Source: Candidatus Babeliales bacterium (GTDB taxonomy: Bacteria; Babelota; Babeliae; Babelales; JBFXEV01). Taken from it: a DNA stretch of 64,000 nt. Position 1 is the stretch's first letter; each line of letters begins with the position of its first letter. Location: contig JBFXEV010000001.1 of NCBI GenBank assembly GCA_050179755.1, positions 681,994 to 745,993 on the forward strand, in the 5' to 3' direction. Position numbers and translations under genes: made by a program. The notes below the pieces were generated by a model. The model ran no database searches, was not told the DNA's origin, and was given only the letters and a program-made list of their open reading frames with translations. Shown here piece by piece: positions 1-7,832 of this stretch.

Positions 1-579
1 ATTAAGTAAGGGTTTTGGTTAGTGCGTAAAAGCATTAGTATCAGAACCCTTAATTTTAGATCAAAAAACCTCTACAGCCGGTCTCAGGCTGGTTTCCTCC
101 TTTGTTTATCCGGGCCTTTAGGGTCGGCAAACTACGAGAGGAAAAGTCCTCCTGCTCTCCTATACAATGTTGATTTTACCCTATAATCTCAGAGATTATT
201 TACCTTTTAGCCCTCTGTAGACCCTTGAATTTTAACCTGGCTTTATGTTACAATGAGAATATAGAATAGGCTCCGGTGCTTAATATAGGGTATTCTAAAA
301 AAATTTACTCTGGCTGTATGAGTATTAGTTGCTTAATAAAGCACTCAGCATTCATAAAAAAGTTATGCGTTAATGGTAGTTAATGCAAGCATGCCATTTG
401 GCGCTATTAAAGATATTTCCATGCAAGGTGATTTCTCATTGGTCGCTTATATGATAACGCCGATAGGCTAATGACAGAGAAAGTCTTTTTTGCTCTCAAA
501 AGAAGAAGAAAAGTTTGAAAGAGCGTCAGCAGATTTTGATGTAGCAGTAAGTAAAGAGCACAACTAAAGGAGATTGTTA

Positions 580-2148
580 ATGTTGAGCAAAAAATTAGTT
601 CTGTTTTGTGCTTTTTTCTCTCTGGCCAATCTTATGGGCATGGAGCAAGTGACTATTCAAACGGAAGAAGGTCAAGAATTTATTGTAGACGCAGACCTTG
701 CAAAGCTTTCGGAAACTTTAAAGAATTTAATAGAAGATGCAGGAGGGGATCTACTTGAGAACTCATTGCCATTGCCTAATATTACAGGGGCCACATGGGC
801 GCAGATTCAAAATTTATTACCCGCTGTTCGCGATATTATAGATGGCACTCAAGATGCTCAGCAAAAAAAAGATGGCATTATTGCCGCATTAAAACAACTT
901 GATGGCACTAATCTCATAGCATTTATTATTGCAGTTAATTATTTGGATATTCGTATTCTATTAGAGTTAGCAATTGATGTTGCAAAACAGATTGATGTTA
1001 AAAAGATAACTCCCGCACAAATTGCTGCACTACCCAAAGAAATTCGCAATCCTATTATATTTGCACAGACATTAAATATTTTGGGTCCATTGAGTGACAG
1101 CTCATTGCAGGTTAAGCAAACTGCCGGTAAACGTTCAGTATTTTCAGTGGATGTATCGCCTGACGGCAGCAAGATGGTCTCAGGATCTAATGATAGAACC
1201 GTACGTATATGGGATGTTAATAATTTTAACTTACTTAAAACATTTTATACCGTAAATATGGTGAGAGCGGTTTGTGTAACACCAGATGGCCGTAAGCTTG
1301 TTACTGGTTCAGACGATGGCGTTGTCCGTCTACTTGATATCAATACCGGTGGGCTCCATCGGGTGTTTATGGGGCATATATTTCCTGTGACATCAATCTC
1401 TATAACGCCAGATGGTAATCATATAGTTTCAGGTTCTGCTGATGGTACAATTCGCATATGGGATATTATGACAGGTGAACTTGTTGCCGTGTTGCGAGAT
1501 TCTGTAAGCAAAGCGATCAATGCAGTCTTTGTAACACCTAATGGTAAACATATAATTTCAGGGTCCGATGATTATTCAGTTGGCATATGGGATATTGGAA
1601 CATATAAGCCATTAGTTAAGCTAATAGGGCATACCGGCCCAGTTAAGGGAGTGTGGGCAACGCCAGATGGTGCCTTTATTGTTTCAGGGTCATTGGATGG
1701 GACAGTTCGTATTTGGGATAGCAACACTCACCAACAATTATACGAGCTAAAAGCCGATGGTCCTGTGAATTCTGTTGTTGTAACGCAGGATGGCAGTAAA
1801 ATACTCTCAAGCTCTCAGAATGGCATACAAGTATGGGATAGAAATAATCGTGCGTTACTTGTACATTTTATTGTTTTTCCTCATATGATTCGGGTTACGC
1901 CCGATGGCAAAACTATTGTGGGTTCCAGTGGTAACTTGTTATTCAAATTTGATATGTCAATTTTGGATCGCTTTCCTGCTATAACACTACAGCAGGCTGA
2001 GTTCATTTGGTCGTATTTACAAGGCAGTCATCGTGAAGACTGGAGCCCTATTTTAAACCTTCTGGCACTTAGGCCAACAATGTTACAAGGAGTAGCGGGT
2101 GTGCAGGAAGTGCAGCCGCCCACAAAACGCCGGCGGGGTGCTCAGTAA
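580..2148 (+). CDS. Secreted Skp1/BTB-like domain + WD40 repeat protein (putative effector)
   Basis: Signal peptide; Skp1-like motifs (VTIQTEEGQEF..LSETLKNLIED..LPLPNI; IIAVNYLDI..LL); repeated GH..V..TPDG..IVSGS.DGTVRIWD units; basic C-terminus PTKRRR. ATG at 580 follows AGGAG (ORF track starts at TTG 574). Confidence 0.85.
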   Translation: MLSKKLVLFCAFFSLANLMGMEQVTIQTEEGQEFIVDADLAKLSETLKNLIEDAGGDLLENSLPLPNITGATWAQIQNLLPAVRDIIDGTQDAQQKKDGIIAALKQLDGTNLIAFIIAVNYLDIRILLELAIDVAKQIDVKKITPAQIAALPKEIRNPIIFAQTLNILGPLSDSSLQVKQTAGKRSVFSVDVSPDGSKMVSGSNDRTVRIWDVNNFNLLKTFYTVNMVRAVCVTPDGRKLVTGSDDGVVRLLDINTGGLHRVFMGHIFPVTSISITPDGNHIVSGSADGTIRIWDIMTGELVAVLRDSVSKAINAVFVTPNGKHIISGSDDYSVGIWDIGTYKPLVKLIGHTGPVKGVWATPDGAFIVSGSLDGTVRIWDSNTHQQLYELKADGPVNSVVVTQDGSKILSSSQNGIQVWDRNNRALLVHFIVFPHMIRVTPDGKTIVGSSGNLLFKFDMSILDRFPAITLQQAEFIWSYLQGSHREDWSPILNLLALRPTMLQGVAGVQEVQPPTKRRRGAQ

Positions 2149-2205
2149 TAATTACCTGAGCTACAGGTAAAAATAGCTTATTTTACCCAAATTAATATTT
2201 TCTAT

Positions 2206-2233
2206 TTGACATAATTTATACCTGTGATATACT
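2206..2233 (+). promoter_or_regulatory. Sigma70-like promoter
   Basis: TTGACA-16 nt-TATACT upstream of the 2275 gene. Confidence 0.5.
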
Positions 2234-2274
2234 GAATATACCCTATATTATTCAGGTTTAAATGGAGTATTATT

Positions 2275-3912
2275 ATGTTAAAGAAATTACTATTTTTTTC
2301 ATTATTAACGGTCTCTTGCGCTTATGCCATGGAACCAGTGCCAGGTAAGCGGCAAAAACGTTATGATAATCCTCTAGAAGATGGTTCAAGTGAGGTTGAC
2401 GCTTTGCCCAGATATTTATCAATTGAGCAGCCGGCATTCGTAAAAAGCGATGAGGACGTTGCTATTCAGACAGAGGATGACCAACACTTTATAGTTCCTA
2501 TTCAACTTATTAAGTTATCTGAGACACTAAAAAATTTAATCGAAGATGCTGGAATAGATCATCCAATTCCGCTACCTAATATTACTGCTTATACATGGCA
2601 GTTAACCCAATCATTGCTAGAGCGCGTGAGTGTTCTTTCGGGAAATGATGCAGCCTTAGCGCCTCATGCAAAAAATTCTATTATAGCAACTTTACAAGAT
2701 CTTAGATGCCAGGATCTTGTTGATTTTATTACAGCAGTTAATTACTTGGATATTCCAATTTTACTTAATATTGTGCTTGATGTTGTAAAGCAAGCAGATG
2801 TTTCTGTTATGACCCCGGAGCAGCTTATTCAGCTGCCAAAAGAAATTGCCAATCCCATAGTTCTTGCGCATATTTTGCGGGCGTTAGCACCGTTACAAGG
2901 GCAGCAGCAACAAGTTATTAAGGGGTTTAAACGAGCGATTGCAGGACTTTGTGTTAGTCCCAATGGTAACAAGATATATACCACGCATATCAATGGTATT
3001 GCGCGTATTTGGGATATGGCAACTGGTCAGCAGTTAAGTCAATTCGGGCATGCATCATGGGGGCGCCCAGGCTTGGGCTTATTGCCTGATGAAAGTGCTG
3101 CCCTATTAGGTTTTCATGCAAAGCCAATAATAATGTGGGATCTGGCAGCGAATAAGGTTTGTGAGAATGTTACCTTTGAGCGTCCTGATAATGCATTTTT
3201 AGGCGTACATACATTTCAAGTTACCCCTGATGGCACTAAAATTGTGTGCAAGGTGCACACGGGTTTCATCATTGTATGGGATCGTATCACTGGTAAAATT
3301 ATTCATCGTATTTTAAGTGACGCAAGGCTTGTTTGTGTATCATCTGATAGCAAGTATCTTGTTTTATGTGCGCTAAATGGTGCAATAACTCTACATGACA
3401 TGGAATCAGGAGTACGCGTTGAGTCATTTCCTAAAATTGGAGATGGCAGTTGTGTTGATGGTGTTTTAATAACGCCAGATCAAAGCAAAATAATTCTAAA
3501 TTATGCTGGTCGCGTATTATTTATAAAAGATTTTAAAACCGGTGCCGATCTTAACCGCATAGGCTATGATGAGCAAATTAGCGCAATATGCGTTACGCCA
3601 GATAGTTCTTATATATTGATTGGGCTTGTAAATGGTAACATACATATGCATGAGCTTGCAACGGGTACATTAGTTGCCTGTTTTAAAGGTCATACAAAGG
3701 CAGTTTGTAATCTTAAAGTTGTGTCACAGGGTAGTCGTTTTGTTTCAGCATCTATGCTGGATAAGACCATGCGTATATGGAATCTAGATATATTTGCTCG
3801 CTTACGTGCATTATCTAAAGAGCAAGCAAAGTATATATGGACTTGCTTATATAAAAAAGAGATTGATAAGTGCCGTGTATATGTTCAAAATATTATAGTG
3901 CCACAAGACTAG
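2275..3912 (+). CDS. Secreted Skp1/BTB-like domain + WD40 repeat protein, tandem paralog
   Basis: Signal peptide ending AYA-MEP; LSETLKNLIED..IPLPNI and AVNYLDIPILL; more degenerate WD40 repeats. Confidence 0.8.
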   Translation: MLKKLLFFSLLTVSCAYAMEPVPGKRQKRYDNPLEDGSSEVDALPRYLSIEQPAFVKSDEDVAIQTEDDQHFIVPIQLIKLSETLKNLIEDAGIDHPIPLPNITAYTWQLTQSLLERVSVLSGNDAALAPHAKNSIIATLQDLRCQDLVDFITAVNYLDIPILLNIVLDVVKQADVSVMTPEQLIQLPKEIANPIVLAHILRALAPLQGQQQQVIKGFKRAIAGLCVSPNGNKIYTTHINGIARIWDMATGQQLSQFGHASWGRPGLGLLPDESAALLGFHAKPIIMWDLAANKVCENVTFERPDNAFLGVHTFQVTPDGTKIVCKVHTGFIIVWDRITGKIIHRILSDARLVCVSSDSKYLVLCALNGAITLHDMESGVRVESFPKIGDGSCVDGVLITPDQSKIILNYAGRVLFIKDFKTGADLNRIGYDEQISAICVTPDSSYILIGLVNGNIHMHELATGTLVACFKGHTKAVCNLKVVSQGSRFVSASMLDKTMRIWNLDIFARLRALSKEQAKYIWTCLYKKEIDKCRVYVQNIIVPQD

Positions 3913-3934
3913 GACAAACTAGAAATTAACTTTC

Positions 3935-5308
3935 TTATAATGCTTTTTCAATAATCTTAATCGAATCAGCAAATCCTTTTCTTAATCTTAATAAAAAAGA
4001 CTTGCAATTTGAAAGTTCCGCAATAAGGTCTTGAATGCGCTCGTCTGTTAATCCAATCTTTTGCGCTTGTGCTTTGGTTAACCCATATTGATCGAGTGTG
4101 CCATCTAAAAATGCCTGAGCAATGCAGCGTGAGGGCACGGTTTGCAAGATATAGCTATATTGGCGCAATTGATAATAAAGATCACTTGCTAATGAACCGT
4201 TTTCATAGGCAACTTGTATTGCTCGCCACTGTGCTGCAAACTGTTCATCCGTTACATCGTTTATTTTTAGATTTGTTCTTCCAAAAAAATCTGCCATAGT
4301 ATTTTCTACTGATGCACTATACTGCCCCATTTTTGCATATGTTAATAAAAATTCTTCAGTGAGCGTTAGGTCTTGCGTTAAAATACATTGTCTCAATGTT
4401 GCAAAGCAAATTTGATCTCGTTCAAGTGCTGTAATGTTGGATTCAACTTCTTTATGTAGTGCAACTAATTGTGCGTGTAATTGCACGAGAAGCTCATTAG
4501 TTTTTTCATCTTCTTTAGTAATTCTTTTAAGAAGTTCTTTGCCGTGTGTTAATGCTTTTTCATACTTCCTATGATTCAATTCTTCTGGATTTGATTCTTG
4601 CAGAGGTTCTTGCATTTCAATTTTTTCTACTGCTTCAATCACTGGCACTGATTCTGATGTTTGAGTTTGCTGCGTAGCAGCAATAATACTTTTAAATGGG
4701 GCAAATGAACCCCTTATTTTCTGTGCAAGAAACCGCCAAGCAGTTGATACTGGTGTTGCTGTTTGTTCAAGTGTGGAGTGCTTAGATGATTGCTGCTCGG
4801 CTGCAGGTATTAATGAAACTGCGCTTGCATTATCAAGTGTGGCTATATACGTAATTTCACTTGGCGCTTCTTGCTGTTCTTGAGTTTTTTGCATTGTGTG
4901 AGCATCATAATCATCAACAATAAGGAGCAGTGGTTTTGGGCTATCTGCAAGATCTAACGTTCTTAACAACGCATCTATGGGTGATGCTTCATGTAAGCGC
5001 ACAACAAATTCAGCAGGAGCTGCTCTATTAAATGGTAATTTGCAGTGATTAAAGAGTAATTCAATTTGGCCATGAATAGTGCGCGTGCAGGTGTTTGCTG
5101 CTTTGCATAATTTTTGTAAATCGCTTAGTGCTGGCCGTTCCGCATGCATGGATTTGCCAGCGGTATTAATGATTATCCAGCTTTTTCCCATTAGATTATC
5201 ATCAGCATCTGGTTCCATGCAAAAAGTATTGGTTGTGATAACGCATATGATGATAAATACAATCTTTTTGCTAGTTGGCATTATATGACCAGCGTTATGA
5301 TCTAACAT
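3935..5308 (-). CDS. Hypothetical secreted helical/coiled-coil protein
   Basis: 457-aa ORF with signal-like segment ending TFC-MEP. Confidence 0.6.
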   Translation of the reverse strand: MLDHNAGHIMPTSKKIVFIIICVITTNTFCMEPDADDNLMGKSWIIINTAGKSMHAERPALSDLQKLCKAANTCTRTIHGQIELLFNHCKLPFNRAAPAEFVVRLHEASPIDALLRTLDLADSPKPLLLIVDDYDAHTMQKTQEQQEAPSEITYIATLDNASAVSLIPAAEQQSSKHSTLEQTATPVSTAWRFLAQKIRGSFAPFKSIIAATQQTQTSESVPVIEAVEKIEMQEPLQESNPEELNHRKYEKALTHGKELLKRITKEDEKTNELLVQLHAQLVALHKEVESNITALERDQICFATLRQCILTQDLTLTEEFLLTYAKMGQYSASVENTMADFFGRTNLKINDVTDEQFAAQWRAIQVAYENGSLASDLYYQLRQYSYILQTVPSRCIAQAFLDGTLDQYGLTKAQAQKIGLTDERIQDLIAELSNCKSFLLRLRKGFADSIKIIEKAL

Positions 5309-5356
5309 GGAAATCCTTTGCGTATAAAGTTTAAAACCTTAAGGTTTTAATAGTAG

Positions 5357-6244
5357 TTATACTCTAGCAGAATTTAATTGCGTTGTACTAGACTTGGCAT
5401 TTGGGTTCAAATAACCATGTTTGATCAGAATCTTTTTAAGATCATTGTGAGACATGTTATGGAAATAAATGGTATTAAATCCACAGGCCTGCGCAGACTT
5501 TACATTTTCGAGCGTATCATCAATGAAGATACATTCTTTTGGATTAAGATCATGCGTTTCAATAAGATATTCAAAAATATCAGTGCTTGGTTTTACCAAA
5601 TTGCAGCCACCAGAAATAATAATATGTTCATCTTTAAGGTGAGCGAATACTTTTTGACCTTCTGCAGATTCATGCAGCAGTGCAAAAGAATATGCATCCC
5701 AGTTTGATAGGATAAATTGTTCACATGAAGGATCTTTCGCGCAAGTTGCAACTAATTGTGCCCCTGCAGGGATTGCTTTCATGTATTTTGCAAATGTTTC
5801 TGTATCAAAGATCGTGCGCATGATGCGCAATAGCAATTTTTTTTCACGTTTAGTGGTGATCTTTTTTTCTTGCCAAAGCTTATTCACTAATTCAGTAGAT
5901 TCGCGCAATGCGTCTTGAGGATTAATTTCCCCCAACAGCACGTCAACTAATAATTGAGGTAATTCAAGCCCTTCTGGGCTTTTAAGCCTTAAATGAATTG
6001 GCCCTTTTTGCATGCCTAGCGTATATAACACTTCAAAGGCTCTTTTTTGCAGATTTCCGGGGTTTTTGCCATCTAAAATGGTATGGCCAAATAAGGTACC
6101 AATACCCAGTTCATTTAGAGTAATTTTGAATTTATTTGCAGCAAATAACACCCCGCCAAGATCCCAGATAATGGTTTTGGCTTGTAGGCCAAAGCTTGTT
6201 GCCGCACAAAGTGCCAACATGAGTATATATTTACGGATATTCAT
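5357..6244 (-). CDS. HAD-family hydrolase with signal peptide
   Basis: IIWDLGGVL motif I, LSN motif II, KP...IFIDD motifs III/IV; N-terminus ends GLQA. Confidence 0.85.
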   Translation of the reverse strand: MNIRKYILMLALCAATSFGLQAKTIIWDLGGVLFAANKFKITLNELGIGTLFGHTILDGKNPGNLQKRAFEVLYTLGMQKGPIHLRLKSPEGLELPQLLVDVLLGEINPQDALRESTELVNKLWQEKKITTKREKKLLLRIMRTIFDTETFAKYMKAIPAGAQLVATCAKDPSCEQFILSNWDAYSFALLHESAEGQKVFAHLKDEHIIISGGCNLVKPSTDIFEYLIETHDLNPKECIFIDDTLENVKSAQACGFNTIYFHNMSHNDLKKILIKHGYLNPNAKSSTTQLNSARV

Positions 6245-6413
6245 AAGATTCCTTATAGCCTCTCAGGGGAGCTTGTTTAATTTCTATTAGAAATAATGTG
6301 GCATAGGGCCTGCAAGTTAACCTACTCCCAATTCTATATTTTTTGGTACAATTTGCAAGGAGCTCATTGACAATAAAAACCCCTTTGCTACGCTTGAAAT
6401 AAGAGGTTATATC

Positions 6414-7832
6414 ATGTTCCAGGAGATTTTCATAATGTTAGATTCACGCAATTTTAAAGTAGCAAAGCTACTCATTTCTCTTATTTCAATTAGTTTATTT
6501 TCGGGCCTAGTGGCAGCACCAACAGTGGTTTCTCGGCAACCGCTCCAATGGGATTGGTCTACTATTGATACAAGCGAGGTGCAATTTGAACCAGCATTTG
6601 GTTGGGGTGCAGCAACGTCTGCCTATCAAATTGAGGGTGATCAAACTGCGCATGGCAAAAAAATTAAAAATAGTTGGACAGAATCAGCAATTGCTCCAAA
6701 GGCTGGCATTGCTGCAGGGCATTGGGATAGATTCCGTGAAGACGTGCAGCTTATAAAGCAAGCTGGGCTTACTGAATATCGTTTTTCTATTAAATGGTCG
6801 GCAATAGAGCCAGAGCCTGGCGTGTTTGATGAAGATGCAATGCAACATTATATTGATCTTGTTGATGAACTTAATGCCAATGGAATTACGCCGTTTGTGA
6901 TGCTCTTTCACCATACGTGGCCGGTATGGTTTGGCAATGTAGGTGATTTCCAGAAAAAAGAAAATATTCCACATTTTACTAAATTTGCAGATTACGTGTT
7001 TAATAAACTTAATGGTAAAGTAAAAATGTGGATGACGTTTAATGAACCATCTGGCTATTGCTTGGAGGCTTATTTTAGAGGTAAATATCCACCATATGCA
7101 AAAAGTTTACGTAAAGCGGGTAAAGCACTAAAAAATATGATTGATGCACATGCTGCTATTTATCATCACTTTAAAGAAAAAGATCCTACAAGCAAAATTG
7201 GTTTTGCACAAATGATGGTGCCGCTTGACCCTTACCCTACGGGGAATCCGTTTAAAAAGCTTGTAAGCTGGATTGGTTGTTCATACTTTGGCCCTATGCA
7301 AAATACTGCTGTTCTTGATTATTTCCGCACGGGCAAATTTGATTGGGGTTTTCGTTTGCATGGTAGAGTGAAGGGTAAAAATAAATTTGTAAAAGGCGCT
7401 ATTGATTTTGTGGGTGTGAATTATTATTCGCACGTAATGCTAGAAGGTAGCAAACATAAATCACTGCCTGATCGCCCTACTTCTGATAATGGCAAGGGCG
7501 TGTACCCCGAAGGTTTATTACGTTCTATAGAATTATGTGCGCAGCATTTGCCAGGTGTGCCTATGTGGATTGGTGAAAATGGCATTTGCGATGCAAGTGA
7601 TACTAAGCGTGATGATTACTTTAAAAAGCATTTATGGGTAACATGGTATGCAAAACAACTTGGGTATGATATACGTGGCTATCACGTGTGGACGCTGATG
7701 GATAGCTTTAACTGGAATACTGGATTTGCCAATAAATATGGCATTTATAAAGTTGATTTTAATACATATGAACGTACACTGCGTGATGGTGCAAAGAGCT
7801 TAATTACTCTTGCAAAGAATGGCAGATATTAG
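6414..7832 (+). CDS. Glycoside hydrolase family 1 (beta-glucosidase-like) with signal peptide
   Basis: FGWGAATSAYQIEG, TFNEP acid/base and IGENG nucleophile motifs. Confidence 0.92.
   Translation: MFQEIFIMLDSRNFKVAKLLISLISISLFSGLVAAPTVVSRQPLQWDWSTIDTSEVQFEPAFGWGAATSAYQIEGDQTAHGKKIKNSWTESAIAPKAGIAAGHWDRFREDVQLIKQAGLTEYRFSIKWSAIEPEPGVFDEDAMQHYIDLVDELNANGITPFVMLFHHTWPVWFGNVGDFQKKENIPHFTKFADYVFNKLNGKVKMWMTFNEPSGYCLEAYFRGKYPPYAKSLRKAGKALKNMIDAHAAIYHHFKEKDPTSKIGFAQMMVPLDPYPTGNPFKKLVSWIGCSYFGPMQNTAVLDYFRTGKFDWGFRLHGRVKGKNKFVKGAIDFVGVNYYSHVMLEGSKHKSLPDRPTSDNGKGVYPEGLLRSIELCAQHLPGVPMWIGENGICDASDTKRDDYFKKHLWVTWYAKQLGYDIRGYHVWTLMDSFNWNTGFANKYGIYKVDFNTYERTLRDGAKSLITLAKNGRY

Follow-up and report, generated by a model that had tools for sequence, protein, structure and literature searches.

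The window analysed here is a 64,000-nt stretch (positions 681,994–745,993 of contig JBFXEV010000001.1) from the genome of a Candidatus Babeliales bacterium (GenBank assembly GCA_050179755.1); the contig, 1.53 Mb long, is 96% complete. Two open reading frames (ORFs), referred to below as genes A and B, lie near its start, head to tail on the plus strand. Each encodes a protein in which a segment resembling an export signal is followed by a domain similar to eukaryotic Skp1 (the head), a short linker and a WD40 propeller. Members of the Dependentiae, the phylum concerned, are described in PMC4378268 and PMC6561590 as parasites of amoebae and other protists. The coordinates of the features are collected in Table 1.

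Table 1. Features of genes A and B and of related loci. Positions are those of the window unless a genome coordinate is given; aa, amino acids; pLDDT, predicted local distance difference test.
Feature	Position	Strand	Remarks
Gene A	580..2148	+	522 aa; signal-like N-terminus, Skp1-like head, linker helix, 7-bladed WD40, helical C-terminal tail
Gene A, signal-peptide-like segment	580..639	+	aa 1-20; predicted cleavage before Met21-Glu22; heuristic
Gene A, head	643..1029	+	aa 22-150; PLPN aa 64-67, AVNYLDI aa 118-124
Gene A, linker	1030..1095	+	aa 151-172; LPKEIRNPI at aa 151-159
Gene A, WD40 propeller	1105..1953	+	aa 176-458; 28 strands, 7 blades (DSSP of model)
Gene A, C-terminal helices and disordered tail	1954..2145	+	helices aa 459-502, pLDDT 83-95; tail <50
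Gene A, basic patch PTKRRR	2119-2136	+	in disordered C-terminal tail
Inverted repeat	2152-2170		directly after gene A stop; pattern match only
Promoter-like site TTGACA-16-TATACT	2206-2233	+	before gene B; consensus match only
Gene B	2275..3912	+	545 aa; architecture as gene A
Gene B, signal-like segment	2275 onward	+	aa 1-18, then Met19-Glu20
Gene B, basic patch GKRQKR	2344-2361	+	aa 24-29, just behind signal
Gene B, head	about 2452-2832	+	about aa 60-186
Gene B, linker	2833-2898	+	begins LPKEIANPI
Gene B, degenerate WD40 propeller	about 2908-3789	+	PF00400
Five tandem paralogs L001-L005	G000:C1:403832-412745	-	outside window

Architecture of the encoded proteins

A first-pass annotation of the locus had ascribed Skp1-like motifs and the Skp1 helix AVNYLDI to both tandem genes, and had made its proposal depend on the N-terminal domain folding as Skp1 or a BTB domain. 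PLPN and AVNYLDI are present in both translations, and both heads score above the curated cut-off (21.9 bits) of the Skp1_POZ family PF03931, with 29.2 bits for A and 35.4 bits for B. Solved Skp1 chains were the best sequence matches of both proteins (E 1.6e-9 for A and 9.4e-8 for B), and a profile built from the seven paralogous heads of this genome aligned by hhalign to 16 eukaryote-type Skp1 sequences with a probability of 99.8% (E 1.5e-28). The AlphaFold model of the gene A head alone has a mean pLDDT of 92.6 and a predicted template modelling score (pTM) of 0.87. When this model was compared with solved structures by Foldseek, only Skp1/ASK1 chains were found among the matches listed (ranks 1–50), while the top match in VIA-align was 1ldk_D, the Skp1 chain of the Cul1-Rbx1-Skp1-Skp2 complex (Z 14.9, root-mean-square deviation (rmsd) 2.3, 109 residues, 28% identity). 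The VIA-align ranking placed Skp1 (Z 14.9, 14.5 and 14.5) above Elongin C (12.7) and BTB domains (11.9 or lower); BTB/3-box chains aligned with Z of 10–11.7 over 125–132 residues. In an ESM Atlas model, residues 22–169 align along Skp1 models, with TM scores of 0.67–0.69 to Skp1 clusters. A fold of the Skp1/BTB type was accordingly recovered by all four approaches (PF03931, hhalign, Foldseek and VIA-align).

The resemblance does not extend over the whole of Skp1. Stogios 2005 describes a distinctive PxPN motif in strand B3 of Skp1, involved in the contact with Cul1, and two extra C-terminal helices that form the F-box-binding surface; in a second paper, the C-terminal helix (residues 147–163) is described as inserting beside the F-box. 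The alignment of the head profile to Skp1 ends at about position 136 of 170, where helix alpha7 begins, and the Skp1 family PF01466, corresponding to the C-terminal helices, has no match in A or B at E<=10. What the head retains of Skp1 is thus the strand in contact with Cul1 (PxPN) and helix alpha5 (NYLDI), and what it has lost is the F-box-binding C-terminal helices. Because the F-box-binding part is missing, A and B are not full members of the Skp1 family; nor are they F-box proteins or BTB-domain proteins, the BTB family PF00651, searched as a control, having no match anywhere in the genome. Skp1 residues Asn108 and Tyr109 were considered as Cul1 contacts and rejected, since in a published study Asn108 belongs to the Rav1-binding site and falls just beyond that of the F-box protein Cdc4.

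The portion of Skp1 that is retained raises the question of whether the proteins might capture host F-box proteins, either keeping them from Cul1 or carrying them to the ligand of the propeller. Helices alpha5 and alpha6 and part of alpha7, which help to bind F-boxes, are still there, but they are not followed by the C-terminal helix that lodges next to the F-box, and the chain runs straight into the propeller; we regard such capture as very improbable.

Between head and propeller, both proteins carry the segment LPKEI.NPI, which the annotation had rightly noted as conserved in the two genes and had likened to an F-box. The latter part of this assignment was not supported. In the full-length model of gene A, DSSP assigns a short helix to aa 145–149 and another to aa 153–168, starting from LPKEI, before the first propeller strand at aa 176; the linker is thus a single helix of about 16 residues and not a three-helix box of about 45 residues. 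At E<=10, neither F-box family (PF00646, PF12937) matched when the N-terminal pieces and a linker piece of 40 aa were searched, and F-box models found nothing across the whole genome at E<=0.01. Of the three Pfam assignments that the annotation had named as a check, Skp1_POZ was therefore obtained in both proteins, while the second Skp1 family (PF01466) and the F-box were not.

It could still be argued that the LPKEI helix is the remnant of an F-box packed on the fused Skp1 part, so that Skp1, F-box and WD40 receptor would be covalently joined. LPxEI followed by spaced hydrophobic residues does resemble the beginning of F-box helix 1, and the motif is specific to the clade of the window genes, occurring in 24 of its 57 proteins, in none of the 55 eukaryote-type Skp1 and in two of 29 other fused heads. 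However, in addition to the negative searches and the single short helix, the segment stands where Skp1 helices alpha7/alpha8 would be in the hhalign alignment, and the Atlas model follows Skp1 models through this region. We therefore consider an F-box remnant highly unlikely.

The WD40 propeller assigned to both genes by the annotation was confirmed by PF00400, with E 1.3e-49 in A (6 repeats) and 1.6e-13 in B, where only two repeats are recognised. The full-length model of gene A has a mean pLDDT of 91.7 and a pTM of 0.83, the latter suggesting that head and propeller are held in a fixed geometry in this model. Its Foldseek matches are WD40 propellers only, the best being 5yzv (E 2.5e-26, TMt 0.91), with beta-TrCP at rank 35 and Fbw7 at rank 42 (rmsd ~10), and are uninformative on head and linker. 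NCBIfam returned only a propeller match for A, below threshold (42.4 bits versus a cut-off of 287.3). After the last blade the model has three to four helices without a Pfam match, and a helix motif in this region is common to all seven paralogs.

Identity between A and B amounts to 33% across 480 aa and is unevenly spread, the head standing at 52% and the linker at 59%, against 23% for the propeller. This bears out the earlier view that the adaptor part is conserved and the propellers have diverged. The basic patches that had been noted, PTKRRR in A and GKRQKR in B, were likewise found in the translations, and both fit the pattern K-K/R-x-K/R, which we take to be that of classical monopartite nuclear localisation signals; this is a pattern match only. 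KRQKR together with NPLED is conserved in the ortholog of B and in one further relative (P0009). Comparable patches lie close to the N-terminus in eight of 41 listed rows and close to the C-terminus in seven; four of the rows are duplicates of paralogs from this genome.

Both proteins start with M-x-K-K and a hydrophobic stretch, ending in G-M-E in A and A-M-E in B, which agrees with the signal peptide proposed in the annotation, as called by a heuristic together with the (-3,-1) pattern. In A, a basic n-region precedes the hydrophobic core, with L at -3 and G at -1, and aa 2–19 form a lone helix in the model. All seven paralogs share the basic and then hydrophobic start and the small residue, followed by Met-Glu or Met-Asp. 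The junction is not confined to this family: genome-wide, Met-Asp/Glu is enriched 8-fold at residues 21–25 (0.0138 versus 0.0017 per position), and it is present in about 172 of 1315 crude ORFs, where position -3 is L/A/V and position -1 is A/G/S/C. Sites in the window include 580–648, 2275–2337 and 5308–5210 (minus strand). The residues at -3 and -1 fit a cut by signal peptidase I just before the Met, and because of them the mature proteins would start with Met-Asp/Glu. This dipeptide might act in sorting as a signal specific to the lineage, provide a stable N-terminus of the host type, or mark an internal start from which a signal-less form arises. As a marker of ankyrin proteins it failed, only one of 141 motif-bearing ORFs having at least two ankyrin-like motifs by a crude regular expression. 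Since about 40% of the ORFs in the genome look exported by the heuristic, a signal alone is no mark of an effector. PMC4378268 and PMC6561590 report that most ankyrin proteins in Dependentiae genomes have signal peptides, and assume their secretion.

Relatives in the genome and in the phylum

The genome has seven such genes, A, B and five more in a tandem array 270 kb away. The propeller blades of the array are near-identical 40-residue units. Across 30 blades, about five positions have 7–9 different residues each, as opposed to 1–5 elsewhere, and these positions lie right after the GHT motif and round the GS-x-D turn. They presumably face the ligand-binding top surface of the WD40 propeller. 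The array paralogs are thus a constant scaffold with a variable face. Four of the five (L002–L005, G000:C1:405635-412745) also have a hydrophobic, Gly/Ala-rich C-terminal end reminiscent of a tail anchor, which is absent from A and B.

The closest relatives among named genomes are three loci of one metagenome-assembled genome (MAG) labelled 'Candidatus Babeliales bacterium', with which the locus is syntenic. The order in the MAG is helicase, A-ortholog, an extra paralog, B-ortholog in two ORFs, 457-aa neighbour and HAD hydrolase. Identities are 43% for the A-ortholog, 51% and 39% for the two B-ortholog ORFs, 38% for the 457-aa neighbour and 65% for the HAD hydrolase. The A/B pair is therefore older than the split of the two species and evolves fast, with gene birth and death. 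The ORFs of the B-ortholog (L009:2641-4519 in OY970310.1) overlap and separate a head part of 331 aa from a propeller part of 309 aa; the split may stem from a frameshift, from decay of the gene or from faulty assembly.

Searching 1.84 billion proteins with the profile gave 1301 matches at E<=0.001. The best were proteins of 470–820 aa that covered the whole profile at their N-terminus, and ordinary Skp1 proteins of 150–180 aa ranked lower. Signal-like starts are found in 75 of the 141 proteins whose head matches at least 80 profile positions, shorter matches having been dropped. In a quick tree with an arbitrary root, the group containing the window genes comprises 57 rows, 49 of them with signals (SH-aLRT support 95), and eukaryote-type Skp1 forms a group of its own with 55 members (support 96).

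The domains behind the head vary. A Pfam scan of 26 relatives, three of which (P0121, P0036, P0146) have no Skp1_POZ match at E<=1e-4, found leucine-rich repeats (LRR) in eight, WD40 in four, ankyrin repeats in three, Lcl_C in three and RCC1 in one; four had Skp1_POZ only, two were eukaryote-type tandem Skp1 with PF01466, and one had no family. Within the phylum, 46 of 261 genomes have Skp1_POZ, as do 29 of 145 genera, mainly in ORFs of 400–900 aa that are often arrayed; none of 14 control genomes has it. The cullin family PF00888 was found in none of the 261 genomes. Skp1-like heads were also seen fused to Lcl_C, in proteins that have signal peptides but lack the Met-Asp/Glu junction, and to RCC1 or WD40, in proteins with no signal at all (P0088, P0089, P0145, P0150, P0059 and P0063 for the three kinds together). 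The fused-Skp1 design may reach beyond Dependentiae.

A possible role at the host Cul1 ligase

Taken together, the sequences and models are best explained, though with no better than about even odds in our judgement, by A and B acting as exported proteins that combine the adaptor and the receptor of a host Cul1 ligase in one chain. In such a scheme, the Sec pathway would export the protein, its signal being cut just before the conserved Met-Glu, and the protein would then reach the protist host. There the head would dock on the N-terminal domain of host Cul1 in the place of host Skp1, and the propeller would hold a host protein for ubiquitination by the Cul1-Rbx1 ligase, with A and B then aiming at different host proteins. 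The design would be comparable to that of the BTB-Kelch adaptors of Cul3, but built from Skp1 and with no need for an F-box. [quoted passage not shown]

Several observations weigh against this one-chain receptor. The full PxPN is found in only 17 of the 57 clade proteins, versus 38 of the 55 eukaryote-type Skp1, and the five other paralogs of the genome read PLPT instead of PLPN. Binding of many sorts is mediated by the BTB fold, and Skp1 itself has partners outside the Skp1–Cul1–F-box (SCF) ligase. Two secretin genes were found in the genome but no VirB4-type ATPase, other secretion systems not having been searched. A Sec signal combined with the C-terminal hydrophobic segment could leave four of the paralogs anchored in the bacterial inner membrane. 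Finally, the sequencing runs listed for the organism are three DNA runs from one study, with no RNA run among them.

Part of this evidence would suit proteins that are not directed at the host at all and stay in the periplasm or on the bacterial surface, where the BTB-fold head would serve for assembly and the propeller would act as scaffold. All members have a putative Sec-type signal, four have the potential anchor, no dedicated injection system was found within the limits just given, and an exported look is common among the ORFs of this genome. Against this, the head is nearest to Skp1 itself and not to generic BTB domains, and it keeps the Skp1 hallmark motifs in bacteria with no cullin, in a genome with no F-box. 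Moreover, Skp1_POZ is absent from the control genomes, and genes that interact with a host typically show the tandem arrays, the birth and death of genes and the fast divergence seen here. On balance, a purely bacterial function seems improbable.

The head could also act in the host by itself, filling the Skp1 site on Cul1 and shutting down SCF, or capturing another Skp1 partner, with the propeller contributing no more than localisation or avidity and bringing in no substrate. The evidence for a Skp1 head (PF03931, hhalign, VIA-align) fits this equally well, and because the F-box-binding helices have been lost, Cul1 bound by the head could not recruit host F-box proteins. For a pure blocker, however, a variable tail would be superfluous. 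Here divergence is much quicker in the propellers than in the heads, binding domains of many kinds are attached to related heads, and the variation in the array is concentrated at a few blade positions. We consider a blocking role unlikely, if a little less so than a purely bacterial one.

The proposed one-chain receptor can be set beside several known systems. Eukaryotic Skp1 (1LDK chain D) shares with A and B the fold, the PxPN strand and the NYLDI helix; unlike it, A and B are bacterial, do not have the PF01466 helices, are fused to a propeller and carry a putative export signal in front. The BTB-Kelch and MATH-BTB adaptors of Cul3, according to a review, resemble A and B in that a single polypeptide serves as both adaptor and receptor, with a propeller behind the BTB-fold head; in both of our genes, head and propeller lie in a single ORF, and for gene A they have been modelled together. 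A and B differ in having a Skp1-type head, WD40 instead of Kelch, and one helix without a BACK domain, and we infer that their likely cullin is Cul1, not Cul3.

Among symbionts of amoebae, Domman et al. 2014 (PMC4209131) describes the PEX1 proteins of Protochlamydia (N-terminal BTB plus C-terminal LRR), likewise an expanded family with a cullin-adaptor-fold head and a variable repeat tail that evolves through gene birth and death. PEX1 has a BTB head and its delivery is proposed to use type III secretion, whereas A and B, from another phylum, have a Skp1-type head and a putative Sec-type signal. Bacterial F-box effectors such as Legionella AnkB address the same ligase, and F-box/WD40 receptors (beta-TrCP, Fbw7, Cdc4) likewise use a WD40 propeller as the receptor; both kinds carry an F-box and need host Skp1, while A and B carry the Skp1 part and no F-box. 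The AnkB-Skp1 complex 5k35 appears among the matches of the head, via its Skp1 chain.

Viral proteins provide further parallels. Giant viruses (PBCV-1 A039L; pandoravirus, pithovirus, fadolivirus) also represent cases of Skp1 in a parasite of protists, and among viral proteins it is their Skp1 that comes closest to the head in fold (E 6.8e-6 to 1.5e-4). Viral Skp1 is a separate protein that binds its partners through an F-box-like motif, the ankyrin proteins A682L/A607R being the partners of chlorovirus PBCV-1 A039L, whereas in A and B the receptor is fused. By their library names, the mimivirus 'BTB/POZ domain and WD-repeat' protein (R739) and the poxvirus BTB-Kelch proteins join a BTB-fold head to a propeller as A and B do. 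The BTB-BACK part of vaccinia A55, which has been solved with Cul3, aligns to the head with Z 10.0, and the fold match of R739 is weak (probability 0.18). In contrast to A and B, these proteins have BTB-type heads, are viral and cytoplasmic, and have no export signal. No description of bacterial Skp1-domain fusions was found in open-access papers and preprints. The nearest parallels are bacterial BTB-LRR, viral Skp1 and viral BTB-WD proteins, and the Skp1-WD40 fusion is a variant on a known strategy. In working mode it is the Cul3 system that comes closest, and the BTB-LRR proteins of Protochlamydia, the BTB-Kelch proteins of poxviruses and the proteins named as BTB/WD-repeat in mimivirus are versions of that system encoded by pathogens.

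Known pathogen routes to cullin ligases are F-box proteins, BTB proteins and separate viral Skp1. If the proposed one-chain receptor is correct, a bacterial Skp1 fused to its receptor would be a fourth route, one in which host Skp1 is unneeded. It would also give a specific and testable point of entry into the control of protist hosts by Dependentiae, a parasitic phylum that is widespread yet has hardly been studied and has had very few of its effectors tested. The family would further show, in minimal form and from nature, how a Cul1 receptor can be built as one chain. More tentatively, and with the chances somewhat against it, the whole phylum might use exported receptors whose Skp1 heads dock directly on host Cul1, with host Skp1 and the F-box both bypassed, and in which interchangeable WD40, LRR, ankyrin, RCC1 or Lcl_C tails choose the victims and Met-Asp/Glu perhaps serves as a second signal. 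Behind the cleaved signal, this dipeptide may mark a further export step or give the protein a host-like stable N-terminus in the host cytosol.

Surroundings of the gene pair

The start of gene A was placed at the ATG at 580, with an in-frame TTG at 574 as the alternative; the former is favoured because of a conserved AGGAG ribosome-binding site (567–572) at a spacing of 7 nt. When the 579 nt upstream of gene A were compared with the closest named genome, only this site and its spacing were conserved. The same region, part of a gap of about 600 nt behind a gene that resembles a DEAD-box helicase (judged by its N-terminal sequence only), has no ORF of at least 60 aa, and an Rfam scan of window positions 1–6500, which include it, was without a match. 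Gene B has its own GGAG site, 8 nt upstream of its start. The G+C content is about 38% over the window.

Three genes with signal-like starts follow downstream of gene B and encode a 457-aa protein, a HAD hydrolase and a GH1 glycosidase. The 457-aa protein (window 3935–5308, minus strand), which has no match to a Pfam or NCBIfam family, combines the signal-like start with a Cys-Met-Glu-Pro junction and, given the low identity to its ortholog, may be another fast-evolving exported protein.

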